Of a stretch of 64,000 nt of DNA, positions 35,632 to 56,098 are shown piece after piece. The number at the start of each line of letters is the position of its first letter. Position 1 is the stretch's first letter. Both the position numbers and the translations under genes were made by a program. The DNA comes from a phage: sequence record PZ534534.1. One strand, given 5' to 3'. The notes below the pieces were generated by a model. That model had not been told where the DNA came from and ran no database searches. It saw only the letters and a list, made by a program, of their open reading frames with translations.

Positions 35632-35660
35632 TTGACAAGAAAGATGGGGCCAGATATAAT
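35632..35660 (+). promoter_or_regulatory. consensus sigma70 promoter (TTGACA-17-TATAAT) with -10 embedded in GATGGGGCC/GGCCCCATC palindrome
   Basis: Perfect -35 and -10 hexamers with 17-bp spacer read directly; inverted repeat brackets the -10. Confidence 0.65.
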
Positions 35661-35691
35661 GGCCCCATCTAAGAAAAAGGAGACCATAGCA

Positions 35692-36896: not shown

Positions 36897-36979
36897 CAAA
36901 TACCTATTGTAATTTGCAGAAGGGGATGCTAAAATAGTGTCTCCTTCTATGTTGTTCAAATAAAATCGGAGATTCCATA

Positions 36980-43923: not shown

Positions 43924-44121
43924 ATGAACGCATACGGGATCAAAGTACGTCGCAACACTCGCCAGGTGGTCACCAATCAAGTGATTTGCCGGGTGGATGT
44001 AACCATTAACAACGGGCAAGGCCTTTATAAATTTCGTCGCGGTCATAGCTATACCCTGCAACAGCTTGATCGTTGCGCCCTGACAAAAGGACAGATCAAC
44101 CACTGGTTTAATAAAAAATAA
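43924..44121 (+). CDS. small early protein (65 aa)
   Basis: ATG after AAGAGGA RBS downstream of promoter. Confidence 0.5.
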   Translation: MNAYGIKVRRNTRQVVTNQVICRVDVTINNGQGLYKFRRGHSYTLQQLDRCALTKGQINHWFNKK

Positions 44122-44124
44122 GTA

Positions 44125-44153
44125 TTGACATATAGTCCGACACCAAATACACT
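44125..44153 (+). promoter_or_regulatory. sigma70-type promoter (TTGACA-17-TACACT)
   Basis: Read directly upstream of 44186 gene. Confidence 0.5.
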
Positions 44154-44185
44154 AAAAGCACAAAAGACACTAAGAGGATAAAATC

Positions 44186-44584
44186 ATGAAAACCACTACC
44201 TTTAATTTTGATAATGCGGACTTTTCTTTTTCTGATGTCAAGAACTGCCGCCGTGATCGTGGATTTTACAAGGCTTATAATCTGGTGGGCCTGGACGATG
44301 ACAATAATTTGCACGAAGTAGCTGAGATCCGGTATTATGCCGCCGCCAGCGGGAACACTCACTACTGCGTGTTTTGGATTCACGACAACAAGAACAATAA
44401 GTACGGTTATACTGGCGGCAAGGCGAGCGGTCACGGTTACGATAAAGCTAACGCAGCACTTGAGGGCGCATTAAATGCTATGGGGATCACTGCCGACGGC
44501 TGGATCTACGAAGAAGAGTTTTTGTCGGCACTTGCTGACCACCTGGGCTATAAAAAACACATTGTAACATGTGCCCACGAATAA
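44186..44584 (+). CDS. early protein (132 aa)
   Basis: AAGAGGA RBS. Confidence 0.55.
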   Translation: MKTTTFNFDNADFSFSDVKNCRRDRGFYKAYNLVGLDDDNNLHEVAEIRYYAAASGNTHYCVFWIHDNKNNKYGYTGGKASGHGYDKANAALEGALNAMGITADGWIYEEEFLSALADHLGYKKHIVTCAHE

Positions 44585-44668
44585 AAAATTATTGACACGC
44601 TGCAAAATTCAAGTAAACTATACACAAAAGGCGGGAATGTTTCCCGCCAACACAAAGGAAAAAAGATC

Positions 44669-45064
44669 ATGAATAAGAACGTACGCCGCATCATGAACGA
44701 ACTGGCAAACGATGAAAAAATTATTGATATGCATTTGGTCAACATTTGCCACCGTTGTGTAACATACAACAACCGCGCCGCGAAAGCGCGTGAGATGAAC
44801 GCAAAAGGCACCTTAAAGCCCTTTCAGGTGGTTGTAAAATCTATAACTAGCGCAGCAGGCCAGGCGCATGACCACAACAACGAGAGCGCTAATATTGATC
44901 CGTCTTACGTAATGAAACGGATCCGGACTTGCAAGAATAAAGAGCAGGTGTATAACGTCATAGATTGGCTGGACTCCCTGGGCGATGTGGTTTACAATAG
45001 GTTTTCTGCAGCTATTGAGATTCAGTTAGACAGGTTGGACGGGAAAGTACTGAAAACTTACTGA
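44669..45064 (+). CDS. early protein (131 aa)
   Basis: 5' leader hairpin GCGGGAA-TGT-TTCCCGC then ACACAAAGGA RBS. Confidence 0.55.
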   Translation: MNKNVRRIMNELANDEKIIDMHLVNICHRCVTYNNRAAKAREMNAKGTLKPFQVVVKSITSAAGQAHDHNNESANIDPSYVMKRIRTCKNKEQVYNVIDWLDSLGDVVYNRFSAAIEIQLDRLDGKVLKTY

Positions 45065-45065
45065 G

Positions 45066-45111
45066 TTTATTTTTAGATGGCCTTGACTCCAGGGCCATCA
45101 ATAAAGTAAAC
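45066..45111 (+). repeat. conserved about 46-bp regulatory element, copy 1 (UP-like A/T tract + GATGGCC-TTGACTCCA-GGCCATC palindrome + AATAAAGTAAAC)
   Basis: Near-identical copies at 45688 and 49405; palindrome contains TTGACT. Confidence 0.6.
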
Positions 45112-45144
45112 TAACCACAGTTGAGCGGAAAGGGGGGCTTAAAG

Positions 45145-45264
45145 ATGAGTACTACACGCCAGCACACAAAGGTAACTATTATCGTTTGCATCATTGGGTA
45201 CATCCTGGCGCAAATGTTGATGGGTAGCGCCAACGGTGTCGCAAAATTTTTCTTAAACTTTTAA
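45145..45264 (+). CDS. small hydrophobic peptide (39 aa), absent from ORF track
   Basis: ATG after AAAGGGGGG RBS; IIVCIIGYILAQMLMG hydrophobic core; translated by hand. Confidence 0.35.
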   Translation: MSTTRQHTKVTIIVCIIGYILAQMLMGSANGVAKFFLNF

Positions 45265-45292
45265 TTGACAAGCTAACTTAAATCGATATAAT
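45265..45292 (+). promoter_or_regulatory. sigma70-type promoter (TTGACA-16-TATAAT)
   Basis: Read directly; followed by AAACGGGAAAACTTCCC leader hairpin. Confidence 0.55.
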
Positions 45293-45343
45293 AAGCACAT
45301 AAACGGGAAAACTTCCCAGAATACACAAAAGGAGAAAAACACC

Positions 45344-45685
45344 ATGACTACTATGACCGCCGCAGAAAAAGCTATGCAGATCGCTGAACTGAAAAAACAG
45401 ATCGCAGACCTTGAGAATAAGATCGATAACTTTGAAATCGACGAGGACAAGTACGACGAAAACTATGATGAATGGTTAGACGAGATCTACGGCGAAATTA
45501 TGATCGGAAACATTTCTTTTCTTCCGTCGCGTATCCTCAAGGAGTTAGATCCTATCGCTTACCGCTGCGGATTTAGCGACTACATCGACAGCCTGGATAT
45601 TGAGGACGATGAAGAATACCAGGAATTGCAGACAGAGCTGGAAGAAATGAAAGAAGAGCTTTCAGAGCTGGAAGAAAACGAGTAA
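45344..45685 (+). CDS. acidic coiled-coil early protein (113 aa)
   Basis: AAAGGAGAAAAAC RBS; heptad-like Glu/Leu-rich sequence. Confidence 0.55.
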   Translation: MTTMTAAEKAMQIAELKKQIADLENKIDNFEIDEDKYDENYDEWLDEIYGEIMIGNISFLPSRILKELDPIAYRCGFSDYIDSLDIEDDEEYQELQTELEEMKEELSELEENE

Positions 45686-45687
45686 AA

Positions 45688-45733
45688 TTTATTTTTAGAT
45701 GGCCTTGACTCCAGGGCCATCAATAAAGTAAAC
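45688..45733 (+). repeat. conserved about 46-bp regulatory element, copy 2
   Basis: Identical core to copy 1. Confidence 0.6.
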
Positions 45734-45772
45734 TTTACACTGTTAACACTGAACTAATGAGGAGTTAAAACC

Positions 45773-46018
45773 ATGGCAGCACTAATCACAAAATATTATG
45801 CGCCCACCAACACCAAAAGCGCCCGTATCATGGTAAAAGGCTTCGGACGTAAAAAGGTTTACACCTGGGATTATGCCTTAGACACGGAAGACAACTACAC
45901 CAACGCGATGACCGATTTTATTAATGATCTGAACACGCGGATCTTGACAAATTATAAAATTACCGATATTGCCTATATAGGGGAAGGCGGGATCTGTTTT
46001 GTCGGTATCGTCAAATAA
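45773..46018 (+). CDS. early protein (81 aa)
   Basis: TIR GGAGTTAAAACCATGGC identical to that of 50019 gene. Confidence 0.55.
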   Translation: MAALITKYYAPTNTKSARIMVKGFGRKKVYTWDYALDTEDNYTNAMTDFINDLNTRILTNYKITDIAYIGEGGICFVGIVK

Positions 46019-46093
46019 GCTGTTTTTTCGGTGGTCCTGGTAGCAGGGCCATCTATAAAGACAGTTTATCAACACAATGAAAGGAGAAAGTAC

Positions 46094-46447
46094 ATGATCA
46101 GCGGGGCAAGTTTTATTATTGGCGCTATTGCTACGGCTTTAATTGTAAACAAGATCCAATCTAAAAACGAAAAAGAGAGCAACGCGCTCACAGAATACCC
46201 ATTTTGGGTATTCAACGACAATGAAGACTACATTATCAAGTACAAGAATGAGAAGGGCGACCAGGTAACACCGCGACCGATCCCGGCTTACAAAATGCAG
46301 GAAACACTATACCGCCTAAAGGCTGGGGGCGCAAAAATTGTAGACTTTTGGGGATACGATCACACAGATCAGGAAGTTATAAAGCGCCGTATCCGGGCTA
46401 TTCAGGCCAATATTGAAGTTAGCAAGGGGGGAATATATGAAAATTAA
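46094..46447 (+). CDS. membrane-anchored early protein (117 aa)
   Basis: ATG after AAGGAGAAAG; N-terminal TM helix ISGASFIIGAIATALIV (track start 46031 lies in upstream palindrome). Confidence 0.5.
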   Translation: MISGASFIIGAIATALIVNKIQSKNEKESNALTEYPFWVFNDNEDYIIKYKNEKGDQVTPRPIPAYKMQETLYRLKAGGAKIVDFWGYDHTDQEVIKRRIRAIQANIEVSKGGIYEN

Positions 46448-46634
46448 TTTCGAGAAAATTGTAAAGCGCCCTCATGATTCCGAAGAGCTGCCAGAACGCC
46501 GCCAGCGTAACAATAAACTGAATAAGCCAAAAAGGTTTGGGAAGATCTGGCGTAATCATTATGATCGTAAATTGCCCGGCCTACTTTTGGAACGTGAACG
46601 ACAGGCAGAACGATACCGCCATAAAGACAAATAA
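46437..46634 (+). CDS. small basic early protein (65 aa)
   Basis: ATG after AAGGGGGG; Arg/Lys-rich. Confidence 0.45.
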   Translation: MKINFEKIVKRPHDSEELPERRQRNNKLNKPKRFGKIWRNHYDRKLPGLLLERERQAERYRHKDK

Positions 46635-46641
46635 CAACCAA

Positions 46642-46672
46642 CGCCCCGCCATTGTGCGGGGCTTTTTATTTC
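46642..46672 (+). terminator. rho-independent terminator
   Basis: GCCCCGC-cattgt-GCGGGGC hairpin followed by TTTTTATTT. Confidence 0.7.
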
Positions 46673-46792
46673 TATCCTACGAATAGCGCCCCTGGTTGGC
46701 CCTGTAAGCGCCAAAAAGGCCCCCACCTATGCAATCGCCCCCTTTAACCTGAAAACATCGCCCAAGGCCGTTTTATGGCGTTAAAAATATCA

Positions 46793-46820
46793 TTGACATC
46801 GTCAACAGGTTAGCTATACT
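46793..46820 (+). promoter_or_regulatory. sigma70-type promoter (TTGACA-16-TATACT)
   Basis: Read directly. Confidence 0.55.
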
Positions 46821-46852
46821 AACCACATCAAAGAGAGAAAGGAGTAAACGCC

Positions 46853-47113
46853 ATGCGTAAATTAAAAAATTTTGATAAAGTTGATGTTGTCCTGAATAAT
46901 TTTTACTACTGCAACAACAAGGCTATTTGGTGGCGTGATAGTTCCACCGATAAAGTCAAGGCGCGCTTTCTCCAGGGGCACTGGCAAGGCCGCCCAGTGA
47001 TTAAAATCATGGGGCAATTGGTAGCGTTTAAAAATTGCCGCCGTGTTGATGACGTTGAGGAGATTTTAAACATTTTGCGCCACAATAATTTAAAAAATAG
47101 TGTTGACAAGTAA
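46853..47113 (+). CDS. early protein (86 aa)
   Basis: AAAGGAG RBS. Confidence 0.55.
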   Translation: MRKLKNFDKVDVVLNNFYYCNNKAIWWRDSSTDKVKARFLQGHWQGRPVIKIMGQLVAFKNCRRVDDVEEILNILRHNNLKNSVDK

Positions 47114-47129
47114 ATCTTGATAAGTATAC
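47102..47129 (+). promoter_or_regulatory. sigma70-type promoter (TTGACA-16-TATACT) overlapping end of upstream gene
   Basis: Read directly; followed by AAACGGGAAAACTTCCCG leader hairpin. Confidence 0.55.
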
Positions 47130-47187
47130 TTAAACACGTAAACGGGAAAACTTCCCGCCACTAACAAAGAAAACAGGAGAAAATATC

Positions 47188-47811
47188 ATGACCACCGTTA
47201 ACATTACCACAGGTTACAATTTATCTTTCGACGTGCTGACCGACGAACAAAAAGAAAAAGCCATTGAAATGGTACGCGAAAGAGAAGAACACAGCGGGGA
47301 TGACTTTTTTGCAGAAAGTGTAATTGAACACTACAAAGAATATATCTTTCCAGAGTACGGCCTTGAAGATACCGAAGTACATTGGTCCGGCTTTTGGTGC
47401 CAGGGTGACGGCGCTTCAATCAGTGCTGAAAACGTGGATTTAGAAAAATTTTTGCGTAAAGTAAAGGCCCTGACCAAGTTCCGATCAATTCGTCACTTGT
47501 TCGGCACAATGCACGATGGCGAGTTATCAGCCAGTGTTGAACGCGACAAGTACAGCCATTACAGCCATGAAAACACTGTAAGCGGATACATTGATACCAC
47601 CTGGCTAGATCTGACCGCCAAACAAGAAAACAAAGTGGAAGACCTGGAAGAGCTGATCACCGAGACGGTACGGGAGCTATCCCGCAAGGTTTACGTAGAC
47701 CTGGAGGGGGCCTATCTTGAACAATTCACTACCGAAAACCTGATCGGCCTTATCGAGGCCAATGATTGGCGGTTTGATGTGGATGAAGATGGCGAGATGA
47801 CTTTTTCATAA
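47188..47811 (+). CDS. early protein (207 aa)
   Basis: ACAGGAGAAAA RBS; acidic. Confidence 0.6.
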   Translation: MTTVNITTGYNLSFDVLTDEQKEKAIEMVREREEHSGDDFFAESVIEHYKEYIFPEYGLEDTEVHWSGFWCQGDGASISAENVDLEKFLRKVKALTKFRSIRHLFGTMHDGELSASVERDKYSHYSHENTVSGYIDTTWLDLTAKQENKVEDLEELITETVRELSRKVYVDLEGAYLEQFTTENLIGLIEANDWRFDVDEDGEMTFS

Positions 47812-47901
47812 ATAAAGTGTTGCAATAACCTAAAAACCTGCTATATTAAAACTCAAGGGGGCAAGACGTTTGCCCCCACACAAAACAAAGAGGAAAACAT
47901 C

Positions 47902-48282
47902 ATGAAAAACACTACTAAAGCTATTGACACCGTTATGTTTAACCTGGTTACCTTTCGCGAGGATATGAAAGATCTTCCGCGTGAAACAGTGTGCGACCAT
48001 ATCGAAAACTATCGCAAACTAATCAAAGAGTTGCCTTTAAAACGTGATCAGTATGCGGCTAACGCCATGCTTAATGCCATGATCAAAAAGATGATCCAGT
48101 GTGATTTAACTCTAGCCTATGATTATGCGGGTGGTCGTTTTGCAGTATACAATCAGCCCGTGCCCGGTATGAGCACCACCGAAGAATTGCACGCGCTCAA
48201 TCTAAAACAAGACGTGTGGGATAGTATGCCTCGCGTGGTGGTATGGGTAGAAAGCGGAAAGATTTACGGCGATAATTTTTAA
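47902..48282 (+). CDS. early protein (126 aa)
   Basis: Leader hairpin GGGGGCAAGACGTTTGCCCCC + ACACAAAACAAAGAGGAAAAC RBS. Confidence 0.55.
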   Translation: MKNTTKAIDTVMFNLVTFREDMKDLPRETVCDHIENYRKLIKELPLKRDQYAANAMLNAMIKKMIQCDLTLAYDYAGGRFAVYNQPVPGMSTTEELHALNLKQDVWDSMPRVVVWVESGKIYGDNF

Positions 48283-48291
48283 TCAGGTAAC

Positions 48292-48316
48292 AGGCGGCAT
48301 ATTTGCCGCCTTATTG
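48292..48316 (+). terminator. rho-independent terminator
   Basis: GGCGGCA-tat-TGCCGCC hairpin followed by TTATTGTT. Confidence 0.6.
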
Positions 48317-48346
48317 TTAATCAGAACTGTAAAAGAGGTACATAGA

Positions 48347-48718
48347 ATGGAATTTATTATTTTGGCTGTATTGGTTGCCTTGTTTAACGCCTGGATCGCT
48401 GGCAAGATGGGAAGATCCGCCTTTTTATGGTTTATTATATCTATTTTCCTGGGGGTGGTTGCAACTATTGTATTGGTTATCCTTGCAATTGTTGACAAGG
48501 GGAATAATAGAAAGGGTAAAGTATTTTCAGACCTGTACGACGCTCAAACGTTTGTCAACGCCTATTATAGTGATCTTCCAGTCTCCCTACGTTGCAGCCT
48601 TGCACAACAGGTTTTCGATGAAGCTAAAACCAGAGATCACGCCCATGAGATTTGTTTAACTGAGGCGGATCGCTTATTTGAGAGGAATAGAAAATATGTG
48701 GGCCAGCCGTTTAAATAA
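48347..48718 (+). CDS. membrane protein (123 aa, two predicted TM segments)
   Basis: ATG after AAAAGAGG; MEFIILAVLVALFNAWIAG and FLWFIISIFLGVVATIVLVILAIV hydrophobic segments. Confidence 0.5.
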   Translation: MEFIILAVLVALFNAWIAGKMGRSAFLWFIISIFLGVVATIVLVILAIVDKGNNRKGKVFSDLYDAQTFVNAYYSDLPVSLRCSLAQQVFDEAKTRDHAHEICLTEADRLFERNRKYVGQPFK

Positions 48719-48937
48719 TACCACGTTAATTAATCCATTTAGTGAAGATTTGAGGCCAGCCGCCTGGCGGGATGGATTCAATAATGAAAGCTTTATTTTC
48801 AGGCCTGATCTTAAGGAATTTTATAACAATGGATCGAACAACGACAGAGATAATTTTTCTTGTAATGTGCGTGGTGATAATACTCCTGGGGGCCATTGCA
48901 AACCACGTCACTACTAACAGGAGGAAAGGGGGAGACG

Positions 48938-49057
48938 ATGACACCCAAGGATAAGCCCCGCACCGATAAGGCGCGCCGTGTTATGGTATGGCTGGAGATC
49001 ATCGCCCTTGAAATATTGTTAGGCGTAGGGATGTATTTTATCGCTGTACGCACCTGA
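48938..49057 (+). CDS. small membrane peptide (39 aa), absent from ORF track
   Basis: ATG after AGGAGGAAAGGGGGAG RBS; C-terminal TM WLEIIALEILLGVGMYFIAV; followed by terminator. Confidence 0.4.
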   Translation: MTPKDKPRTDKARRVMVWLEIIALEILLGVGMYFIAVRT

Positions 49058-49061
49058 TAAC

Positions 49062-49090
49062 GGCCCCCGATCCCTGGGGGCCTAACTTTT
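49062..49090 (+). terminator. rho-independent terminator
   Basis: GGCCCCC-gatccct-GGGGGCC hairpin followed by TAACTTTTC. Confidence 0.55.
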
Positions 49091-49113
49091 CAAAAAATTT
49101 TTCTTCCGGGGTG

Positions 49114-49141
49114 TTGCAATCCGGTCCAGAATATGGATAAT
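49114..49141 (+). promoter_or_regulatory. sigma70-type promoter with extended -10 (TTGCAA-16-TGGATAAT)
   Basis: Read directly; same AATATGGATAATA block recurs at 49951. Confidence 0.5.
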
Positions 49142-49201
49142 AACAATCAACGGGGAGACACTCCCCCACCACATAGACAAAGTTCCAAAAGGAGAAACAA
49201 A

Positions 49202-49402
49202 ATGAGCAACAATATCCGCGTTATTAACTTCAAAAAAGAAGAAAAAATTGCTGTGCTGGTTGATGGTCAAGAAATATTCAAGGGGTATTATGAAGATCAT
49301 CAGGTGGCGATCAGTATTACCCGCGTGATTGGTTATCATAATTTCTACCCCCAAGGCGCTGAGGCAGCAGTTAAACGAATCAAAGAGATTGTAGGCCTGT
49401 AA
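49202..49402 (+). CDS. small early protein (66 aa)
   Basis: ATG after AAAGGAGAAAC (track start 49133 upstream in same frame). Confidence 0.5.
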   Translation: MSNNIRVINFKKEEKIAVLVDGQEIFKGYYEDHQVAISITRVIGYHNFYPQGAEAAVKRIKEIVGL

Positions 49403-49404
49403 AA

Positions 49405-49450
49405 TTTATTTTTAGATGGTCTTGACTCCAGGACCATCAATAAAGTAAAT
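49405..49450 (+). repeat. conserved about 46-bp regulatory element, copy 3 (compensatory variant GATGGTC...GACCATC)
   Basis: Same element as copies 1 and 2, with paired substitutions that preserve the inverted repeat. Confidence 0.6.
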
Positions 49451-49493
49451 TTAAACCCTGTTAAAATAATCAGTGCAAAAAGGAGCAATGATC

Positions 49494-49793
49494 ATGTTTA
49501 TACCCGCCAATAATCTTTATTTCTTTGATGGTCAGATCGTAGACGGCGTGGAAGTTGAGATCACTGGATGTCAAGGCGGCCAGGTAATGATCTTCCGCAA
49601 TAGTGCATTTAACGATCAATTCATTACAATGACCATGGAAGTCAAAAAGCTGGACGATAAGAAGACACTCATTGACTATTCCGTGAAAGATCATCCAGAC
49701 TACCACATGATCTATGGTGATTTGTGCATTGTTGACCGTGACAAGGTGGGCGGCATTGTGATCGCTATTGTGAACGATGTTTTCTCTGAATAA
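49494..49793 (+). CDS. early protein (99 aa)
   Basis: ATG after AAAAGGAG. Confidence 0.5.
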   Translation: MFIPANNLYFFDGQIVDGVEVEITGCQGGQVMIFRNSAFNDQFITMTMEVKKLDDKKTLIDYSVKDHPDYHMIYGDLCIVDRDKVGGIVIAIVNDVFSE

Positions 49794-49933
49794 TTCCAGC
49801 AAATGATGCAAAATAAGGCCCATGGCAGGGCCTGCAGCGATATAATCACATAAAGGCTATGCGGTTGCATGGCCTTTATTATTTTGGCGCTACAGCGGCC
49901 CCCAAGGCGCTTAAAAAATTTTTAAAGAAGTAC

Positions 49934-49961
49934 TTGCATCAAGCCCTACAATATGGATAAT
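49934..49961 (+). promoter_or_regulatory. sigma70-type promoter with extended -10 (TTGCAT-16-TGGATAAT)
   Basis: Read directly upstream of 50019 gene. Confidence 0.5.
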
Positions 49962-50018
49962 AGGACGTGTCAGGGGGGCGGCCCCCAATCATTAACCGGA
50001 TAGATAGGAGTTAAAACC

Positions 50019-50303
50019 ATGGCTATTGTTACCGTTGGCGATGTAGTAGAAATGGAAGCAAAATACTTAAAAGCGGGTATGCATATCCTACGCAACGATC
50101 TTGAACTAGTCCTGACAATGGTTGACTATAATCCCGGTCAGGATTATCCAAGCATCGACTACTTTTTTGAGTATGTCGATGAAGAGCTAAAAGAGGATGA
50201 GGCCTATTGCGGTGAGTTCTGCAACTTCTTTTGTCCTGATGAGGTTGTAAAAGTTATCTATCAACCTGGCGTACCTTTCCCGCTGCATGCTATCAACAAA
50301 TAA
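50019..50303 (+). CDS. early protein (94 aa)
   Basis: AGGAGTTAAAACCATGGC TIR. Confidence 0.55.
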   Translation: MAIVTVGDVVEMEAKYLKAGMHILRNDLELVLTMVDYNPGQDYPSIDYFFEYVDEELKEDEAYCGEFCNFFCPDEVVKVIYQPGVPFPLHAINK

Positions 50304-50358
50304 ACCTGGCGGGGCCGAAAAGGCCCCCAATTATGAAAATAAAGAGAGGCAAATCATC

Positions 50359-50478
50359 ATGATGGAACAAATTAAACGCACCGAGGCTATTAATGGCAAC
50401 GTGATCTATTTTGTCAGCAATAACGAAAAAGGCGTACCCTATGCGGCGGTAATAGTACAACCTGACGGCGATTATTAG
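50359..50478 (+). CDS. small early peptide (39 aa)
   Basis: ATG after AGAGAGG downstream of GGGGCC-GAAAA-GGCCCC hairpin (track start 50287 upstream in same frame). Confidence 0.35.
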   Translation: MMEQIKRTEAINGNVIYFVSNNEKGVPYAAVIVQPDGDY

Positions 50479-50663
50479 TTTACTGTGTACGGCGCTTATT
50501 CTTTTGGGCGTCCGGTGCATGATAGAATTTTGAAAGTAGCGAACCCTACCGGGAAAAATATCACAGCAGAAAAATTTTTTGAAAATAGTTGACATGACCA
50601 TATAAGACTGTAGTATATAAATCAAAGGGGCAAGCCCCACCAACCACAAAGAGGATAAAAATC

Positions 50664-50843
50664 ATGGCTATTATTGCAAAGACTGAGATCGTAGGCTTGG
50701 ATTCTATTCTCCTCGCATATGAGGAAGCTATAGAAATGTATGTGGTTTCCTATGGTGAGTATATCCGTGAATATAAATCTATTGATCTGGCTTTTGAATG
50801 TTATATTCGCCAGGTTAATAAAGCGTACGATGATTATCGTTAA
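50664..50843 (+). CDS. small early protein (59 aa), absent from ORF track
   Basis: Leader hairpin GGGGCAAGCCCC + ACCACAAAGAGGATAAAAATC RBS + ATG; TTGACA promoter at 50589. Confidence 0.5.
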   Translation: MAIIAKTEIVGLDSILLAYEEAIEMYVVSYGEYIREYKSIDLAFECYIRQVNKAYDDYR

Positions 50844-50933
50844 AATAGTTTGAAAACAAACAACCATCTTACAAAGCATAATACATAAGGCGGTGGAATG
50901 GTCCGCCACCTGGAACAAGAAGAGGAAAACAAG

Positions 50934-51038
50934 ATGAAACAGAAATTAATTGATGCGGTGATCCTAGCTATTGCCCTGGGTATTGGCCTGATTGCAACCA
51001 TGTCTAATATGATCTTGTCTTCCAACGGTATCGGGTGA
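50934..51038 (+). CDS. small membrane peptide (34 aa), absent from ORF track
   Basis: AAGAAGAGGAAAAC RBS; hydrophobic AVILAIALGIGLIA. Confidence 0.35.
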   Translation: MKQKLIDAVILAIALGIGLIATMSNMILSSNGIG

Positions 51039-51047
51039 GGTTGGCAA

Positions 51048-51263
51048 ATGATCACTAACAAAACAGGCAAAACAGAATTTTTACGCAACTTACAGATCGG
51101 CAAGCCTGAGATCTGGTATTGCACTAAAACACCACGTGACGAAATGAAAGACTTCACCGCCACGCTGCAACGGGTAAAGATATCCATCACGCAGAAAAAG
51201 GCCTTATTAGTGGTGGAAGGTGAGATCCCCCAAACCGTTGTTATAGTTGAGCGTACAGCATAG
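51048..51263 (+). CDS. small early protein (71 aa)
   Basis: GAGGT RBS. Confidence 0.5.
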   Translation: MITNKTGKTEFLRNLQIGKPEIWYCTKTPRDEMKDFTATLQRVKISITQKKALLVVEGEIPQTVVIVERTA

Positions 51264-51354
51264 TTTAATTTATACCGATACCCGAAAATTAACCAACAAA
51301 GCATAAACAGGCGGTTACCGCCGCCTTAAACGTAGCAGAAAGAGGATAGACACA

Positions 51355-51639
51355 ATGAAAAAGATGATCGCAGTGGTTGCCCTAGTTGTTGGACTTAATG
51401 CGCCTGTAATGGCCAAAGAGCTGGCAAAAGAGGTTAATCTAACGGATATTCATGCCGTCAATCGAATCGGGGTTACTTATCGCTTATGCCTTGCCACTAA
51501 AACTTTTAAGGACGGCACAACAGAGTACTACGGATTCGAGGGTGTCCGGTGCGGTGAGCTTGCTCGCGACCTTAAGGAAGATCCAGACCTGGAAGATCTG
51601 CCCATCACCGTAAACGGTAAAGCTTACGTAAACCGTTAA
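51355..51639 (+). CDS. secreted small protein with signal peptide (94 aa)
   Basis: AAAGAGGA RBS; N-terminal MKKMIAVVALVVGLNAPVMA signal-peptide-like segment. Confidence 0.55.
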   Translation: MKKMIAVVALVVGLNAPVMAKELAKEVNLTDIHAVNRIGVTYRLCLATKTFKDGTTEYYGFEGVRCGELARDLKEDPDLEDLPITVNGKAYVNR

Positions 51640-51641
51640 CC

Positions 51642-51776
51642 ATGAGAAAGATAATCATCACCTTGGGGATTGTGGTGGCAATATTGGCGCTCTTTCCCCT
51701 TATGGTTAGGTATGTGCTGATCGGTATTGTCCTGGTAGTCAGTGATCTATTGGAAACGGTTGGCACCTTGTTTTAA
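51642..51776 (+). CDS. small membrane peptide (44 aa), absent from ORF track
   Basis: ATG 2 nt after upstream stop (coupled); two hydrophobic stretches. Confidence 0.3.
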   Translation: MRKIIITLGIVVAILALFPLMVRYVLIGIVLVVSDLLETVGTLF

Positions 51777-51788
51777 AGAGCGGTAAAA

Positions 51789-51980
51789 ATGAATATCGAA
51801 CAAGTTAGAAAGGTATTGGCGGTACTGCGTTATCATAATCATAGAAAGGTTATAGACGATCCTGATTATGTTGATTCAAGTCTGGAAGGGGATACACTGC
51901 AAGCCATAAGCAACATGCAAGAATTGCTAAAGCGCATGACAGAGAAAAACCGACCGGACTACATAGGCGAAAAAATATAA
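51789..51980 (+). CDS. small early protein (63 aa)
   Basis: ORF from track; weak terminator-like hairpin follows. Confidence 0.45.
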   Translation: MNIEQVRKVLAVLRYHNHRKVIDDPDYVDSSLEGDTLQAISNMQELLKRMTEKNRPDYIGEKI

Positions 51981-52192
51981 TATTTATAAACTACAAAACA
52001 GGGCTTGCAATGGTCCTGTTTTTTGTTATACTTGTTTCACGGCAGGCACCTGGCGACAGGGGGAGACAATCACCGGGTGTGCCTGCTATATAAAAACTAT
52101 AAAAACCGTTGACATCTGCCAGGTGGTGGGGTAGCATTTATCTCGAAGGGGGCAAAAGCGCCCACACAACAACCGGAAGAGAGGAAAACGCC

Positions 52193-52465
52193 ATGTTAAG
52201 CTGGATTAACCAAGAAGTTGAATCACGTTTTAATGCTATTTGGGATCTCATCGAAAAAGAGGACGGAACATCAAGCCCTTATCTCAATAATCTTGAATTC
52301 CATTTCGTGGAAGCGATGAACGCAGAACATGATCACGAAGGTGGTGCGGATGAATTCGCTAAAGGATATGGCTTCAACAATGCCAACGAAATGATCGAGG
52401 CGGTTGTACTCCAGGCTGAGGAAGATTATCAATTAAAAACGCTTGAATTCTGCCGCCGTAAGTAA
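52193..52465 (+). CDS. early protein (90 aa)
   Basis: ATG after GGAAGAGAGGAAAAC preceded by leader hairpin (track start 52109 lies in promoter). Confidence 0.5.
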   Translation: MLSWINQEVESRFNAIWDLIEKEDGTSSPYLNNLEFHFVEAMNAEHDHEGGADEFAKGYGFNNANEMIEAVVLQAEEDYQLKTLEFCRRK

Positions 52466-52525
52466 TAAGATAATGACACGGGCCAAAAGGCCCACTAATC
52501 AGAACCACACAAAGGGAGAAAGAAA

Positions 52526-52744
52526 ATGACAACCCGTAAAATTAAAGTTGTTTGCATTGAATCGACTGGGGGCGCTTTTGTAGTTGGTCAGGAATATAAT
52601 GCGGTTTTAATGGGTACGGATTGGAAGGTTAAAGGCCTTAATGGTTACGAGTACGGCACTACTTGCGGCTTGCGTGGTCGAATCGGATACGTGAGTTTAG
52701 ACAATAAAGAAAAATTTGTTTTCGACACCCTTGTGAGTAAATAG
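52526..52744 (+). CDS. small early protein (72 aa)
   Basis: Leader hairpin GGGCCAAAAGGCCC + CACACAAAGGGAGAAAG RBS. Confidence 0.55.
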   Translation: MTTRKIKVVCIESTGGAFVVGQEYNAVLMGTDWKVKGLNGYEYGTTCGLRGRIGYVSLDNKEKFVFDTLVSK

Positions 52745-52822
52745 CATGAATTGCTAAAAACTGATCTGCGAACTGCTGTATTATCAACTAATCAAAACGA
52801 ACCACATAAAGAGGAAAACATC

Positions 52823-53086
52823 ATGAAACGTCTGGATCAGCTTAAATTAGTTCAGTACATGGCCTACAGAATTCTTGAAGTCCAAAAAGGTAGCAAAAAA
52901 GAGGTTTGCGAGAAAGCTTATAAGATCTTTACTCGCAAAAAAGATGACTGGATGCTACGCCAGACCAAAAAATCCGATATCCTGGGGTACCTGGAAGAAG
53001 AGATCCGGCTTGAAGAGCAAGAAGAGATCCGCCGTAGTGAGGCAGATTATCAGGCAGCTTGGGAAAACTGGATGAGCAACAAATAA
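52823..53086 (+). CDS. early protein (87 aa)
   Basis: ATG after CATAAAGAGGAAAACATC (track start 52751 upstream in same frame). Confidence 0.5.
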   Translation: MKRLDQLKLVQYMAYRILEVQKGSKKEVCEKAYKIFTRKKDDWMLRQTKKSDILGYLEEEIRLEEQEEIRRSEADYQAAWENWMSNK

Positions 53087-53152
53087 TACAACAAGTTACA
53101 TGGTCAGGGGCAATAAAGCCCCTTGATCACATAAAAATTATGCTATCCTTGG

Positions 53153-53181
53153 TTGACAGGGATCGGCAGTTTTGCTATATT
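53153..53181 (+). promoter_or_regulatory. sigma70-type promoter (TTGACA-17-TATATT)
   Basis: Read directly upstream of 53232 gene. Confidence 0.55.
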
Positions 53182-53231
53182 CTTTTTTGAAGGGAAGTTG
53201 TAAGAAAATTAACTGAGAGGTAAAAAACACC

Positions 53232-53651
53232 ATGAACATTAAATCTGATAATCCGGCATATAGCTTTGATAACGCTTTTTGTCACGGTCCGGCGGCGAAA
53301 GGATTCGAAATCGATGGTAAACTAATTATTGTCAATGTTGACGGGGAAGAGGTTGCAGTATATCCGGTGGCGGACGTTAAAAGCCGTCTACAATGCCGCA
53401 TGGATGTTACCGCCTATCAGCTTGATCCGGTCCGCATAGTTGCCCTGGTCCTGGAAGAAGAAATTAAAGCCATGCACCATAGCAACAGATTTATTGGTGA
53501 CGCGCAGGATAATATGAAAGTATGCCGCCATAAAGTTAATGAAGTGCTTAAAGAGTACGGTTATAAAGATCTTATGATCAAACGTGAGGAAAAATTCCGC
53601 TACCGTAACGACCTGGCAAATCGGATTTTTGAAATATACGAATCATTATAA
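53232..53651 (+). CDS. early protein (139 aa)
   Basis: GAGAGG RBS; last gene of plus-strand early block. Confidence 0.55.
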   Translation: MNIKSDNPAYSFDNAFCHGPAAKGFEIDGKLIIVNVDGEEVAVYPVADVKSRLQCRMDVTAYQLDPVRIVALVLEEEIKAMHHSNRFIGDAQDNMKVCRHKVNEVLKEYGYKDLMIKREEKFRYRNDLANRIFEIYESL

Positions 53652-53670
53652 TTTTTTAACTGAATTATCA

Positions 53671-53699
53671 AGGGGCTTAGGCCCCTTTCTTTTTGTCTG
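53671..53699 (+). terminator. rho-independent terminator
   Basis: AGGGGC-tta-GCCCCT hairpin followed by TTCTTTTTG. Confidence 0.7.
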
Positions 53700-56098
53700 C
53701 TCTTCTCCTACCATAAACGGCCCTACCTGGCAAGTGGAATAATTGACTAGCTATTAATCCCACACACTGTACAAATATACATGGAAAATAACTATTGCAT
53801 AATTTTTCATTGTGTGGTAGCAAGGCCATTTTTGCCCGTTTTCTCTCCCAAAATTGCACGTAATGCCGCTATTGCATAAATTTTAACCTGATGCATATCT
53901 TCAATATCTTGTCAACAAATAAAAATTCTTATAAGTCATACACTTACACAACATCGAAAGCGTGTCCTATGCGAAAAATCGAGTATAACTATAGCCGCCA
54001 GATTTCAGAATTTACGTACGCTCACCATTCTATAGCTTGCTAAGTATTTATTCCAACCATAGAATAACGGAATAGTCAATACCTGCATAAAATAATTATT
54101 CGTTTAAATTGCATAACATAAATCAGCTCAGGTGTCAACATTTTTCGTAAACAGTCCGAAATTGTCACGGCAAGTTATCATAAGCAGAGAAATCTTTAGT
54201 CGTCTAATGTTTACTGTACGTTACTATACTAACTGGAATCATTAGATGACTAACAGAAAGATAAGAAATAATTAATAATGTAATTGTTTTACCTGTAACA
54301 ATAAGGCAACTATGCAAACGAATGGCATGGCGCGACGGAGTCGCGACATAATATAAAAGCAGTAACCATCACCCCCGTGATAGTTTGTCTGCAAACTATT
54401 AATCAGATCATAGTTGCCTTGTATTTAGTTAATCATGACATAACAAGCAAGGCAACTATAGATCTGCTAATAGTTGCCCTGCTTTTATATTATGTCATAT
54501 ATTATTAACTTGTTAATTGTTAACTTGCTAATTGTTTTCATGCAAACGAATGTCATGGCTTATCATATCTGTGTAAACTGTCAAGGTGTAAACAGTCTAT
54601 GCGGGAACAATCTATACGTGAACAGTGAAACATGAAATAATAACAGTCGTTATTGTGCCATATTGTGTCCGGTGTGTCAGACAAGTTTTTCTCCTCTTTG
54701 TCAAGTGCTGCATGAAAAATTTACAAACTGGTATGGTAGCATTTTTGCGGCCCTGTTTACATTCAGCGATGTATGTATAATCCTTGTTGTGTGGGCGTTT
54801 AGACGTCTAGACGGTTGGAAGTCTGCAGGTCAATATCTAATCTATTGGCTGCTAACTATATCCCACACAAATAGTAAGAAATATGATTGTTATATGCGTA
54901 AACTGTAACTCATGTTATCAATCCCTGTATGTATCGCCAGTGGTGCGCATAATGGGTATTATGTTAAATTGCCCGTAATGATAACTATTCTCACAATGAT
55001 AGGTATTCTCATTCACCCCCACAAGATAGGTTGCAAATGTTGTGCCACTGTGTGAACGGCCTCACCTATTAATTTGCCTCACTGCCTCGATATTTGAGAA
55101 TTATTATAAGAATGAGAAGTATTCCCATTTCGTCCGCCTGGCAGCACTCCAGTCGCTACCGCTCATGACAGGGCAGAACTAGACCCTCTTCAGATATTTC
55201 TGGCTGACTCTTCAGGTCTGTGTGGGAAAAGCCAACCTCTCCGGCGGGGAAGGGGAGGTCAATTAAAAAATTTACGTGGTGTATGAAGCGCTCTTCAGGT
55301 AAGGCATGTGTTATGGGATGAAACCCTCTTCAGGCAATGATATTTGTGGGTGTGATATTTGCTGGAAAGCCAGATATGACGGGACTCCCGGCGGGGCAGG
55401 GGTAGTACAGACAAGGAAAATGTGGGGATGTGGTGGGAGTAAATTGATCAGACAGGTAGAGTATGGAATATGTTACAGGTATGTTAAATAGGGAGGCTGA
55501 ATATCTGTAAGATTTGTGTGTAAAATCAAAGACTTAAGTGGTGTTGTGGTATTTTCTATAAATAATTCAAGTTTAATAGGTAATATTTGTCTCTATCCGC
55601 CTTGTGTGGTAAACAGATTCAGATGAGATTGGTTTACAAGTGTATACATAATATACAAATTAAAGATACAAGAAACCCCCCTCCCCCTTCGGCTACCATT
55701 CACCTTTTCCTCTGACTGGTACTTAAACACTTATTCAGACTCTTCAGGTTATCACCCATATATCATATGGCAGTGACTGGTGTCCTCCGGCCACTCTTTC
55801 GTCACCCGTCCGCTTCGCCATGCTAATGCCATAGCCAATGGTTCGGTTGTTCACCCTGTTCACTCAGGTGTATCTCCATACCCCTTCAAACCGAAGAGAA
55901 CAGAAAACCCGAATTACTCGGTAAAAGAAAAGAGAAGAACTTAATTTTATCAGGATAGGCAAGAATGTCAAGGCATGACTGCTCACTAAACAAGCAAACA
56001 GTCATGTGTGGGAGGTAAGTGATTGTGGTGGTAGGAAATTTAGTTGAAAGATGTGTTATAGGTGCTTCCAGCACTTTAGCCGGGCAGCTAATTGTGTG
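53700..56098. other. 2.4-kb gene-free strand-switch region with nested palindromes and iterated motifs (candidate replication origin / regulatory hub)
   Basis: No convincing ORF on either strand; inverted repeats, direct repeats and six CTCTTCAGG copies read directly. Confidence 0.5.

Follow-up and report, generated by a model that had tools for sequence, protein, structure and literature searches.

Hairpin-leader cassettes resembling promoter-early stem-loops in the early region of an rV5-like phage

We suggest, with a probability of roughly one half, that the early region of this Vequintavirus is built from modular expression cassettes, a counterpart of the promoter-early stem-loops (PeSLs) of the T4-like phages RB49/phi1, T4/PST and KVP40/nt-1 (Arbiol et al., 2010, PMC2839356; Comeau et al., 2014, PMC4122927), in which the hairpin would stabilise transcript boundaries and the conserved parts, as comparison of relatives shows, mediate gene shuffling. 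The window (the whole 64,000-nt stretch of record PZ534534.1) comes from a coliphage, an rV5-like Vequintavirus with 93-95% identity to rV5 and Mangalyan. Its early ORFan region spans 43.6-53.7 kb on the + strand, and its rV5 counterpart is ORF195-164, hypothetical proteins throughout; Pfam gave no family above the curated cut-off for the eight early-region proteins scanned, and the four early proteins scanned against PHROGs fell into families of unknown function. At 56-64 kb lie minus-strand genes, transcribed towards the early region.

A GC hairpin (stem of at least 5 bp, at least 4 of them GC) occurs in 19 of the 23 + strand early intergenic regions of at least 45 nt, versus 2.6±1.5 (maximum 7) in 300 dinucleotide shuffles. 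The layout that a preliminary description had ascribed to many early genes is therefore real and non-random, but complete in only about 9 of about 29. The full layout comprises an UP-like AT tract (73% AT), a sigma70 promoter near consensus, 8-12 nt, a short GC hairpin with G-rich 5' arm and C-rich 3' arm (class A), a spacer with a CACAAAG-type motif, a GAGG/GGAG-type SD and the ATG. The hairpins quoted in that description all exist, 1-5 nt from the coordinates given (GCGGGAATGTTTCCCGC at 44631, AAACGGGAAAACTTCCC at 45301 and 47140, GGGGGCAAGACGTTTGCCCCC at 47857, GGGGCAAGCCCC at 50627 and GGGCCAAAAGGCCC at 52480), although the last example, with hairpin and leader present, has a weak promoter (8/12). 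The class A cassettes are:

44592-44671, + strand: cassette 1, TTGACA (44592)-16-TAAACT (44619), ATG 44669; hairpin GGCGGGAATGTTTCCCGCC at 44630-44648, then leader AACACAAAGGAAAAAAGATC
45265-45346, + strand: cassette 2, TTGACA-16-TATAAT (12/12; rV5 P192), ATG 45344; hairpin GGGAAAACTTCCC at 45305-45317, leader with ATACACAAAAGGAGAAAAACACC
47103-47190, + strand: cassette 3, TTGACA-16-TATACT, ATG 47188, repeat family D6; hairpin CGGGAAAACTTCCCG at 47143-47157, leader with CCACTAACAAAGAAAACAGGAG
47820-47904, + strand: cassette 4, TTGCAA-16-TATATT, ATG 47902; hairpin GGGGGCAAGACGTTTGCCCCC at 47857-47877, leader ACACAAAACAAAGAGGAAAACATC
49114-49204, + strand: cassette 5, TTGCAA-16-GATAAT, ATG 49202; hairpin GGGGAGACACTCCCC at 49152-49166, leader with CACATAGACAAAG and AAAAGGAGAAAC
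49934-50021, + strand: cassette 6, TTGCAT-16-GATAAT, ATG 50019; hairpin GGGGGGCGGCCCCC at 49973-49986, TIR GGAGTTAAAACCATGGC at 50007-50023, identical to 45761-45777
50589-50666, + strand: cassette 7, TTGACA-16-TAGTAT, ATG 50664; hairpin GGGGCAAGCCCC at 50627-50638, leader ACCAACCACAAAGAGGATAAAAATC
52109-52195, + strand: cassette 8, TTGACA-17-TAGCAT (rV5 P168), ATG 52193; hairpin GGGGGCAAAAGCGCCC at 52148-52163, leader ACACAACAACCGGAAGAGAGGAAAACGCC
52443-52528, + strand: cassette 9, weak promoter TTGAAT-17-TAAGAT (8/12), ATG 52526; hairpin GGGCCAAAAGGCCC at 52480-52493, leader with CCACACAAAGGGAGAAAGAAA

In each of the nine promoter-linked cases the hairpin lies 8-12 nt past the -10 hexamer, even though most of the sequences in between cannot be aligned; by our rough arithmetic this regularity has a probability of about 1e-7 under uniform placement. 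Within a lineage, the uniform spacing may stem from the copying of a single ancestral cassette instead of selection. Between hairpin and SD lies an unstructured, A-rich, U-poor spacer of 17-35 nt (A 55%; T 9% versus 24.6% regionally, p=4e-13). Folding from the predicted start sites leaves 2-6 unpaired 5' nucleotides before the hairpin, and the SD and AUG unpaired in most leaders; cassette 1 folds at -15.1 kcal/mol with 4 unpaired nucleotides after the predicted start at 44626, and cassette 4 has 2 at its predicted 5' end. The searchable literature holds no transcription-start or 3'-end data for these phages, so the 5'-terminal position of the hairpin is a prediction.

This anatomy, with the hairpin 2-6 nt past the predicted start, no U tract, an open SD and AUG and a U-poor spacer, is compatible with the earlier proposal that the hairpins protect mRNA from 5'-end-dependent decay. 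RNase E senses whether a 5' end is accessible or base-paired, 5' stem-loops stabilise ompA and papA mRNA (PMC3997798, refs 92-95), and the notion that such hairpins shield mRNA from 5'-end-dependent decay by RNase E/RppH comes from the same review. Protection of 5' ends cannot be the whole story, however, because the hairpin-plus-leader unit also occurs without a promoter, and because equivalent hairpins over or between the -35 and -10, in the window and in RB49, are absent from the promoter's own transcript. The tails of 5-6 nt predicted for cassettes 2 and 3, which also speak against it, exceed what classical 5'-hairpin protection tolerates. Four strong early promoters (43846, 44125, 46793 and 53153) have the leader and no hairpin, which counts against our own reading. 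The promoterless units and the hairpins around promoter elements are:

50311-50361, + strand: promoterless hairpin-plus-leader unit, GGGGCCGAAAAGGCCCC at 50311-50327, 7 nt past the upstream stop, ATG 50359
50888-50949, + strand: hairpin-plus-leader unit with no convincing promoter, hairpin 50888-50911, leader GGAACAAGAAGAGGAAAACAAG, ATG 50934
51309-51357, + strand: hairpin-plus-leader unit with no convincing promoter, AGGCGGTTACCGCCGCCT at 51309-51326, leader with GCAGAAAGAGGATAGACACA, ATG 51355
45066-45122, + strand: class C cassette, copy 1 of a 57-nt repeat (family D1), with a 10-bp hairpin GATGGCCTTGACTCCAGGGCCATC around the -35 TTGACT, then 18 nt, then TAAACT
45688-45744, + strand: class C cassette, repeat copy 2, 93% identity to copy 1
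49405-49461, + strand: class C cassette, repeat copy 3, 82% identity

The three repeats thus enclose the -35, and hairpins at 35642 and 36918 enclose a -10. A degenerate relative of the class C repeat lies at 46024-46060.

The same arrangements bear on a rather unlikely reading, in which the hairpin attenuates or terminates upstream transcription, as proposed for RB49/phi1, and keeps read-through from building up where strong promoters follow one another, its location after the -10 being incidental. The parts match those of PeSLs, whose stem-loop cut lacZ expression in the manner of a strong terminator (PMC2839356); hairpins take several positions relative to the promoter in the window and in RB49, as would suit elements that act in upstream transcripts; and in the promoterless units the hairpin lies 6-9 nt past a stop codon. 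However, the sequence behind class A hairpins is A/C-rich and its first 8 nt have 0-3 T, versus 5-7 behind the terminator-like hairpins that follow stop codons; lacking a U tract, class A hairpins are unlikely to be terminators. A hairpin downstream of its own promoter would also abort its own transcripts at about +25, and the same region has separate terminator-like hairpins with T tracts (class B):

46643-46662, + strand: class B terminator-like hairpin with T tract, shortly past a stop codon
48292-48311, 49062-49082, 49850-49879 and 51995-52022: other class B hairpins

It is very improbable that the hairpins are instead antisense terminators, which with a U-rich tail on the minus strand would stop antisense transcription entering the early region. 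Such a tail exists as the complement of the A-rich segment between -10 and hairpin, on the minus strand our scan marks terminator-like features at 44648, 45318, 47877, 49166 and 51326, and the genes at 56-64 kb point the right way; but the U-rich antisense tail is missing from the hairpins of Phapecoctavirus and RB49, a single boundary terminator would suffice, and the fixed relation to -10 and SD would be left unexplained.

Many genes share the leader motif. With up to 3 mismatches, CACAAAGAGGAAAA has 30 matches versus 10.3±3.4 expected, 15 of them on the + strand from 44168 to 52818. The 17-nt TIR that the preliminary description reported as shared by genes 45773 and 50019, GGAGTTAAAACCATGGC, is present in exactly two identical copies, at 45761 and 50007, running into the two ATGs. 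Another leader with a repeated stretch is:

52787-52825, + strand: leader CCACATAAAGAGGAAAACATCATG of gene 52823 (repeat family D4), whose 16-mer AGAGGAAAACATCATG is identical to 47889-47904

Direct-repeat families at 43.5-53.8 kb consist mainly of leaders, TIRs, promoter tracts and hairpin repeats. A motif common to many genes would suit a phage or host protein that binds the hairpin and/or the CACAAAG leader and controls all early genes together, be it a translational repressor, an RNA chaperone, a nut/boxB-type antiterminator or a DNA-binding repressor at +3 to +22. The Phapecoctavirus hairpins fall into only a few families by sequence, their loop being of the GGAAT(R)GT type, and some loops are GAAAA or GAAA (50311; the phita32 variant of 52480), resembling boxB or GNRA loops. 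In the window, however, the stems differ and so do all the loops (TGT, AAC, AGACG, ACA, CAAG, AAAA, GAAAA), hairpin sequences change freely among orthologues, no hairpin accompanies four of the early promoters, and no Pfam family stood above the curated cut-off among the eight early-region proteins scanned. A common regulator is therefore improbable, and the suggestion that the shared leader is its translational site finds no support.

No segment of the orthologous leaders varies as much among 10 Vequintavirus relatives as the hairpin, yet 63 of 64 hairpin variants fold (-4 to -20 kcal/mol): hairpin potential is maintained despite sequence turnover. The cassette 3 hairpin flank is CA(C/T)AGGCGGGAAAACTTCC(C/A)GCC in 10 of 10 relatives and of cassette-2 type in the window, where it has been converted by copying from leader 45344 to leader 47188. 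In relative L011 the cassette 4 hairpin interior is inverted, and in L009 this hairpin is copied into the 52193 leader. The G.U/A.C strand test gave 29:25 among Vequintavirus variants and 21:13 for unique hairpins, no demonstration that the hairpin acts in sense RNA; a further count of 41:12 is inflated by related copies.

Comparison among relatives shows the cassettes to be crossover points for gain and loss of small genes. Gene 52526-52744 is missing in six relatives (L006, L007, L009-L012), with crossover sites in the cassette 9 leader on the left and the gene 52823 leader on the right; the sequenced FFH2 and phita32 junctions place the crossover within CCACA(C/T)AAAG(A/G)GGA. An extra gene after 50843 in FFH2, A135 and EI-SP-GF is flanked by a 32-nt leader/TIR repeat (50918-50949), the L008 deletion 45112|45688 falls between copies 1 and 2 of the 57-nt promoter-hairpin repeat, and homology blocks common to the window and Phapecoctavirus start and stop at leaders or TIRs. 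Loss of gene 53232-53651 involved a crossover within two similar hairpins, leaving a chimeric hairpin in L008:

53106-53123, + strand: hairpin AGGGGCAATAAAGCCCCT, the left crossover site, with its partner at 53670-53687

Because indel junctions between relatives fall in the leader motif, hairpins and promoter repeats, the identical 17-mers and repeated hairpins are best read as traces left by recombination, or by gene conversion from one cassette to another. An unlikely rival reading is that the palindromes are kept at the DNA level because they move ORFan cassettes, as hot spots of recombination or template switching or as structure-specific sites, with effects on expression secondary or absent. 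The 53106/53670 crossover, the inversion and copying of hairpins in L011, L009 and the window, equal hairpin stability on both strands and the mapping of RB49 mini-circle crossovers to the stem-loop (PMC2839356) would all fit. The best-resolved junctions (52514|52787 and 50949|50918), however, lie in the leader/TIR, outside the hairpin; plain sequence homology explains the junctions with no need of structure-specific activity; and the -10-to-hairpin spacing is tight in non-alignable leaders.

In the PeSL-like reading that we favour, host RNA polymerase would start 2-6 nt ahead of the hairpin, placing it at the extreme 5' end of the gene's mRNA, where it would impede RppH and 5'-end-dependent RNase E; when transcription reads through from a promoter further upstream, the hairpin would form the 3' boundary of the preceding cistron and impede exonucleases. 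At either end it would be a decay barrier, not a terminator. The hairpin's selected role may not require its presence in the promoter's own transcript, since hairpins also enclose the -35 or -10 in the window and mostly fall between them in RB49. The open, U-poor spacer would keep the ribosome site accessible regardless of upstream sequence, so that each small ORFan would come with a complete set of expression signals, insulated from its context. Promoter, hairpin and leader/TIR blocks, being present in many copies, also provide the homology through which recombination adds, removes and exchanges gene cassettes, both within a phage lineage and from one lineage to another.

The design is widespread. 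Phapecoctavirus early regions each have about 15-20 such cassettes, the jumbo phage PBECO4 has them too, and one 92-nt non-coding cassette has blastn matches in 188 phage records, including Phapecoctavirus, Justusliebigvirus (phi92-like), Vequintavirus and Asteriusvirus. By analogy only, integron attC cassettes likewise comprise small ORFs, promoter-poor or linked to a promoter, that lie between imperfect palindromes conserved in structure and not in sequence, and circular cassette intermediates are reported for PeSLs; unlike in integrons, no integrase or structure-specific recombinase was identified, and ordinary homology in leader and promoter repeats explains the window junctions. Phage morons are also autonomous small genes with their own expression signals, whereas here the flanking regulatory sequences are conserved repeats and themselves crossover sites. 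Intercistronic REP-type stabilisers share cistron-boundary hairpins without U tracts, but the window hairpin is tied to promoter and TIR at fixed distances. The 5' stem-loops of ompA and papA, and the comparable stabilising leader hairpin of T7 phi10, resemble our cassettes in placing a stable hairpin a few nucleotides from the (here predicted) 5' end, with the ribosome-binding region open behind it; each of those is an individual case proven by experiment, in contrast to a repeated genome-wide architecture with predicted 5' ends, predicted tails up to 6 nt and some hairpins unable to be 5'-terminal.

The comparison with PeSLs goes furthest. The window cassettes belong to Vequintavirinae, with others in Stephanstirmvirinae and the jumbo Asteriusvirus; their hairpins lack a U tract and lie mostly 8-12 nt downstream of the -10, to be transcribed as the predicted mRNA 5' end, whereas the stem-loop lies mostly between -35 and -10 in RB49, where the downstream position is only a rare fifth subclass, and upstream of the promoter in T4/PST. 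Both have an AT-rich upstream tract, a strong sigma70-type promoter, a stable G-run/C-run stem-loop and an SD with start codon at the 3' end, in many copies among small ORFans of a plastic early region, and in both the indel and replacement junctions of close relatives fall within the elements. Examined by the identical procedure, RB49 PeSLs showed an UP tract, TTGACA, a G-run/C-run hairpin and an A/C-rich leader with the motif ACACAAAACAAAAGGAG, as in ACACAAAACAAAAGGAGAA beside ACACAAAACAAAGAGGAAAA of the window.

Positions 44000-53500 of the window are 93-95% identical to rV5, Mangalyan and about 60 other full-length Vequintavirus genomes. This stretch corresponds to rV5 ORF195 to ORF164, about 30 small hypothetical genes on a single strand, and belongs to the transcription unit of genes 10-1-238-164 (Kropinski et al.). 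Early gene content varies among the 10 relatives that we compared. Pfam scans of eight early-region proteins found no family above the curated cut-off, and PHROG scans of four found only families of unknown function. Sigma70 promoters are annotated at equivalent sites in the rV5 and Gotham records (5 annotated and 13 predicted in the region, respectively); the leader hairpins are unannotated in both. Rfam gave 0 matches at gathering score in the whole window and none that passed an E-value threshold, the single hit in 43-56.5 kb being at chance level (E=0.28). The early genes are separated from convergent minus-strand genes by ~2 kb (about 53700-56000) without convincing open reading frames, holding only short ones that lack a Shine-Dalgarno (SD) sequence; this is the "non-coding" box of the rV5 genome map.

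The early region carries a repeated, non-random cassette of promoter, hairpin, leader, SD and ATG. Hairpins (stem of 5 bp or longer, 4 or more G-C pairs) occur in 19 of 23 early plus-strand intergenic regions of at least 45 nt, against 2.6±1.5 (maximum 7) in 300 dinucleotide-preserving shuffles, using a rough gene map refined by eye. Non-coding sequence makes up 15% of the whole window and contains 39 of the 82 hairpins of this kind. The leader motif CACAAAGAGGAAAA, allowing up to 3 mismatches, has 30 matches where 10.3±3.4 are expected, half of them (15/30) on the plus strand between 44168 and 52818, and the direct-repeat families of 43.5-53.8 kb are mostly leaders, translation start blocks including the ATG (TIRs), promoter tracts and hairpin-containing repeats. 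Every hairpin quoted in the preliminary description is present, displaced by just 1-5 nt, and the 17-mer TIR reported there for two genes, GGAGTTAAAACCATGGC, has exactly two copies, whose ends fall in the ATGs at 45773 and 50019. We distinguish hairpins just downstream of a -10 box (class A), terminator-like hairpins (class B) and a repeat enclosing the -35 box (class C).

Hairpins and hairpin-less promoters of the early region
44630, 45305, 47143, 47857, 49152, 49973, 50627, 52148, 52480; plus strand; class A hairpins with a recognisable promoter (n=9)
50311, 50888, 51309; plus strand; hairpin, leader and SD without a convincing promoter (n=3)
43846, 44125, 46793, 53153; strong early promoters with an A-rich leader and no hairpin (n=4)
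46643, 48292, 49062, 49850, 51995; class B hairpins, with 5-7 T in the next 8 nt
45066-45122, 45688-45744, 49405-49461; class C 57-nt element
46024-46060; degenerate fourth copy of the class C element

Class A cassettes are uniform in layout. Their promoters match the consensus hexamers at 9-12 of 12 positions at 44592, 45265, 47103, 47820, 49114, 50589 and 52109, and at 8 of 12 at 49934 and in the promoter of the 52480 hairpin; A+T makes up 73% of the 25 nt that precede the -35, where AAAAAATTTTT-type tracts occur. The hairpin is G-rich in its 5' arm and C-rich in its 3' arm in all 12 cases. In the nine with a promoter it starts 8-12 nt past the -10 hexamer, a distance kept within this range though the intervening sequences are mostly not alignable. 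Under uniform placement between -10 and SD, the chance of such a gap is ~1e-7 by our own arithmetic, a figure that the shared ancestry of the cassettes weakens. With a start site predicted at the purine 7-8 nt past the -10, the unpaired 5' nucleotides before the hairpin would number 2, 2, 3, 3, 3, 4, 4, 5 and 6; protection by a 5' hairpin classically needs at most about 2-4. Our literature search found no experimental start-site data or transcript maps for rV5-like, phAPEC8-like or jumbo coliphages.

The TIR downstream is open and U-poor. Class A hairpins end 20-35 nt before the ATG, and GAGG or GGAG is found 17-35 nt past the hairpin and 5-9 nt ahead of the ATG. The spacer from hairpin to ATG is 55% A and 9% T, against 24.6% T regionally (p=4e-13). 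Full leader transcripts fold with minimum free energies of -6 to -18 kcal/mol (hairpin segments alone, -5.5 to -16), and most leaders leave SD and AUG unpaired in their minimum-energy fold.

Class A hairpins have no U tract, with only 0-3 T in the 8 nt that follow, and we rejected an intrinsic terminator on this ground. An attenuator of the type proposed for PeSLs, the promoter-early stem-loop cassettes of T4-like phages, is unlikely: it too lacks its U tract here, and the hairpin would terminate its own promoter's transcripts. We also rejected an RNase III site, as the stems are just 4-9 bp. Class B hairpins are ordinary terminator-like elements with the U tract of a Rho-independent terminator, 4-22 nt after a stop codon (56 nt for 49850). 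The class C copies are 82-93% identical, and their 10-bp hairpin encloses the -35 TTGACT.

Related elements occur nearby and elsewhere in the window. Hairpins surround the -10 box at 35642-35670 (AGATGGGGCCAGATATAATGGCCCCATCT) and 36918-36948 (AGAAGGGGATGCTAAAATAGTGTCTCCTTCT), corresponding to the "stem-loop over the -10" PeSL subclass. In the replication/late part, a hairpin at 24291-24308, GGGGAGGCACTCCTCCCC, directly follows GAGTATAAA, which resembles the T4-late-like motif noted for rV5, and is followed by ACAAAAACTAAGGAGAG and an ATG at 24335: a class-A-like leader behind a candidate promoter of non-sigma70 type. Between the gene at 51789-51980 and the 52109 promoter lies a ~100-nt non-coding segment (51992-52092; hairpin core about 52041-52087), about 80% conserved in two Phapecoctavirus genomes and also matching Cronobacter and Enterobacter phage records, where it is unannotated. 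It opens with a terminator-like hairpin whose loop contains a -35 (TTGCAA-16-TATACT), continues with a long stem-loop (-23.3 kcal/mol, z=-3.05) and has no Rfam match; it could be a small RNA or a structured leader.

Hairpin potential is maintained while hairpin sequence turns over. We aligned each class A leader across 10 Vequintavirus relatives (rV5, Gotham, Mangalyan, FFH2, phita32, an IMG/VR contig and four unannotated records), using GenBank relatives; an IMG/VR pattern scan for orthologous leaders gave one locus only. Promoter and TIR are conserved. The hairpin varies more than any other part of the leader, through slippage in runs of G or C, altered loops and wholesale replacement. Nevertheless, 63 of 64 distinct orthologous variants still fold, at -4 to -20 kcal/mol: pairing, rather than sequence, is conserved. 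RNAalifold found no consensus structure in an unanchored MAFFT alignment of 36 cassettes, because unequal stem lengths shift the register, and we claim no formal covariation statistic because a hairpin-anchored alignment would be circular.

This diversity bears on the proposal, made in the preliminary description, that the leaders carry a site for a common translational regulator. We rejected a single operator or RNA site (RegA-, boxB- or repressor-like), as stems and loops differ between leaders and orthologues and only the A-rich leader and SD are common; a common regulator site of any kind is highly improbable given such diverse hairpins. The interpretation given there is partly supported: what stands is the architecture with a hairpin at the predicted transcript start, not the shared recognition site. 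The hairpin it listed twice, AAACGGGAAAACTTCCC, recurs because in the window the flank of the 47143 hairpin now carries, through conversion, the sequence found in the 45305 leader, where every relative has GGCGGGAAAACTTCC(C/A)GCC.

Two changes among the relatives are telling. In A135 the interior of the 47857 hairpin (47857-47877) is exactly inverted, from GCAAGACGTTTGC to GCAAACGTCTTGC, and in C5 a 47857-type hairpin stands in place of the 52193 leader's own (window 52148-52163); both are signatures of palindrome-mediated template switching or gene conversion. There is no reliable strand asymmetry: plus- versus minus-strand RNA stability (G.U versus A.C) divides 29:25 among Vequintavirus variants and 21:13 among unique hairpins, and a 41:12 count that includes related copies owes its skew to a single GGGCGG...CCGCTC variant present many times. 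Reverse complementation leaves the G-arm-first polarity unchanged, so this polarity is uninformative on strand. Inversion, swapping and strand symmetry of stability all favor a purely DNA-level role of the hairpin in recombination, which we nonetheless consider decidedly unlikely. Termination of antisense transcripts, an explanation that does not generalize to relatives, is the least probable reading that we considered.

Indel junctions fall inside cassette parts. The window differs from the 10 relatives by about 9 distinct indel or replacement events, about 5 of them with a junction in a leader motif, hairpin or promoter repeat (52514/52787, 50949/50918, 50893, 53124/53671 and 45112/45688); cassette involvement is not obvious for the events at 49807, 51981 and 51650. 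Gene 52526-52744 is missing in six relatives, and in FFH2 and phita32, where we followed the loss at sequence level, it left a chimeric leader, in which the hairpin GGGCC(A/G)AAAGGCCC and ACTAATCA... from the left are joined to AAAGAGGAAAACA..ATGAAACG from the right. This places the crossover inside CCACA(C/T)AAAG(A/G)GGA. After 50843, FFH2, A135 and EI-SP-GF carry an extra gene flanked by a 32-nt leader/TIR repeat (50918-50949), Mangalyan has a larger insertion there, and phita32 and C14 carry different inserts starting in the hairpin at 50893. Gene 53232-53651 is missing in Gotham, C14 and the IMG/VR contig, the last of which has a chimeric hairpin made from 53106-53123 and 53670-53687. The same contig lacks 45113-45687, two genes, by deletion between class C copies 1 and 2.

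Homology blocks shared with the distant Phapecoctavirus Mt1B1_P17 likewise start and stop at leaders or TIRs. Window 52508-52826 is 89% identical to 8336-8649 of Mt1B1_P17, from the CACAAAG motif to the next gene's ATG, with different flanking genes; this unit looks like a cassette-level horizontal transfer between subfamilies. A second block, window 53231-53653, runs from ATG-1 to stop+2. The TIRs at 44169-44199 and 47885-47915 are 87% identical over 31 nt, reaching 12 nt into the coding sequence, and their genes share the start ATGAAAA(C/A)CACTAC (MKTT/MKNT) and are otherwise unrelated, which suggests that crossovers can fall just inside the open reading frame.

The cassette is spread across phage lineages. 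Phapecoctavirus genomes (Mt1B1_P17, phAPEC8, B15, DIJ07P2) each have about 15-20 in their early region, in the form TTGACA-16/17-TAnnnT, 8-15 nt (mode 10), GC hairpin, 17-27 nt A-rich spacer and ATG, with few hairpin families: GGCGGCAATGGTGCCGCC, GCGGGAAnnnTTCCCGC and GGGGCGnnAnCGCCCC. The same design recurs in the jumbo phage PBECO4 (Asteriusvirus), as TTGCAA-17-TATAAT, GTTTTACATCGAGA, GCGGGAAGTGTTCCCGC, AGAGAGA and ATG. A blastn search with a 92-nt non-coding Phapecoctavirus cassette matched 188 phage records, at up to 14 places per genome, including Phapecoctavirus, Justusliebigvirus (phi92-like), Vequintavirus and several 350-kb jumbo phages.

We suggest that the class A hairpin acts as a decay barrier at transcript boundaries within a PeSL-like cassette, a reading to which we give about even odds (roughly 0.5). 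In transcripts from the adjacent promoter the hairpin would form the 5' end; in read-through transcripts it would mark the 3' side of the upstream cistron, as it would in the promoterless units, where it lies 6-9 nt after stop codons. The A-rich, U-poor spacer would keep the ribosome site accessible and poor in RNase E-type sites. The T7 phi10 leader hairpin is a phage precedent for protection by a 5'-terminal stem-loop. In the ompA and papA mRNAs, such a stem-loop protects against 5'-end-dependent decay by RNase E/RppH (reviewed in PMC3997798). A boundary barrier accommodates hairpins over or between the promoter hexamers, as in class C and the T4-like phage RB49, where a strict 5'-cap reading fails.

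Two further ideas are long shots. The first is a mobile, integron-like cassette system of large coliphages, in which a phage or host activity could recognize the palindromes, as DNA hairpins or through replication template switching, and excise and insert ORFan units. This would explain the same non-coding cassette in at least four lineages (rV5-like, phAPEC8-like, phi92-like and 350-kb jumbo; RB49-like phages have a related design). In the second, the 5' hairpin would label early phage mRNAs as "self" and shield them as an Srd-like protein turns host RNase E on host mRNAs. T4 Srd reportedly stimulates RNase E, and phage mRNAs with a protected 5' end would then be at an advantage. The window encodes a 325-aa protein on the minus strand (13627-14604), adjoining divergent promoters at 14604 and 14747, that is probably the Srd-like protein rV5 gp11; it matches PHROGs annotated "Srd anti-sigma factor" (E=1.5e-10) and "decoy of host sigma70" (E=4e-13), and its best PHROG family is labelled HNH endonuclease.

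These cassettes extend the PeSL concept, in which regulatory cassettes serve both the expression and the shuffling of small accessory genes, beyond T4-like phages to several large E. coli myovirus groups, in a variant whose stem-loop is predicted to be transcribed as the mRNA 5' end. They provide a concrete and testable rule for the expression and exchange of early host-takeover ORFans that accounts for the positions of mosaic boundaries, and a set of compact natural promoter, 5'-hairpin and ribosome-binding-site parts for engineering therapeutic rV5-like phages. The mechanism is not new, stabilizing 5' hairpins and PeSL-mediated shuffling both being established ideas; what appears new is PeSL-like cassettes with a predicted transcribed 5' hairpin in non-T4 lineages. 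The searchable literature held no earlier description of such hairpins in rV5-like, phAPEC8-like or jumbo coliphages, which is not proof of novelty.

PeSLs cluster between ORFans in the hyperplastic regions of T4-like phages, and have been proposed to terminate or attenuate upstream transcription and to promote modular shuffling via recombination and mini-circles (PMC2839356; PMC4122927). Like them, the window cassettes have a sigma70-type promoter, an AT tract before the -35, a G-run/C-run stem-loop, an SD and start codon at the 3' end, and a concentration in a plastic region of small ORFans, with about 5 of 9 indel junctions inside the elements. By these features they therefore qualify as PeSLs at the level of sequence. 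Of the five PeSL subclasses defined by stem-loop position, the rare fifth lies downstream of the -10 (Arbiol et al., PMC2839356). The common positions, upstream of, between or over the hexamers, are seen only at 35642/36918, where the loop holds the -10, and in the three 57-nt repeats, where it holds the -35; most window cassettes have the hairpin 8-12 nt past the -10. In RB49 ORF185-211, most stem-loops (GGGGATCnnnGATCCCC) lie between -35 and -10, with two or three around the -10 and one downstream of it; RB49 leaders are A/C-rich and U-poor like those of the window (CCCAACACAAAACAAAAGGAGAA versus CCCCCACACAAAACAAAGAGGAAAA). The rV5 record notes an RB49 relative, which a tblastn search with the rV5 ORF167 homologue failed to find. 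PeSL stem-loops are proposed terminators or attenuators; in sequence, the class A hairpins have no U tract. The window cassettes differ from PeSLs in lineage and in the dominant position of the stem-loop, which is predicted to lie inside the promoter's own transcript.
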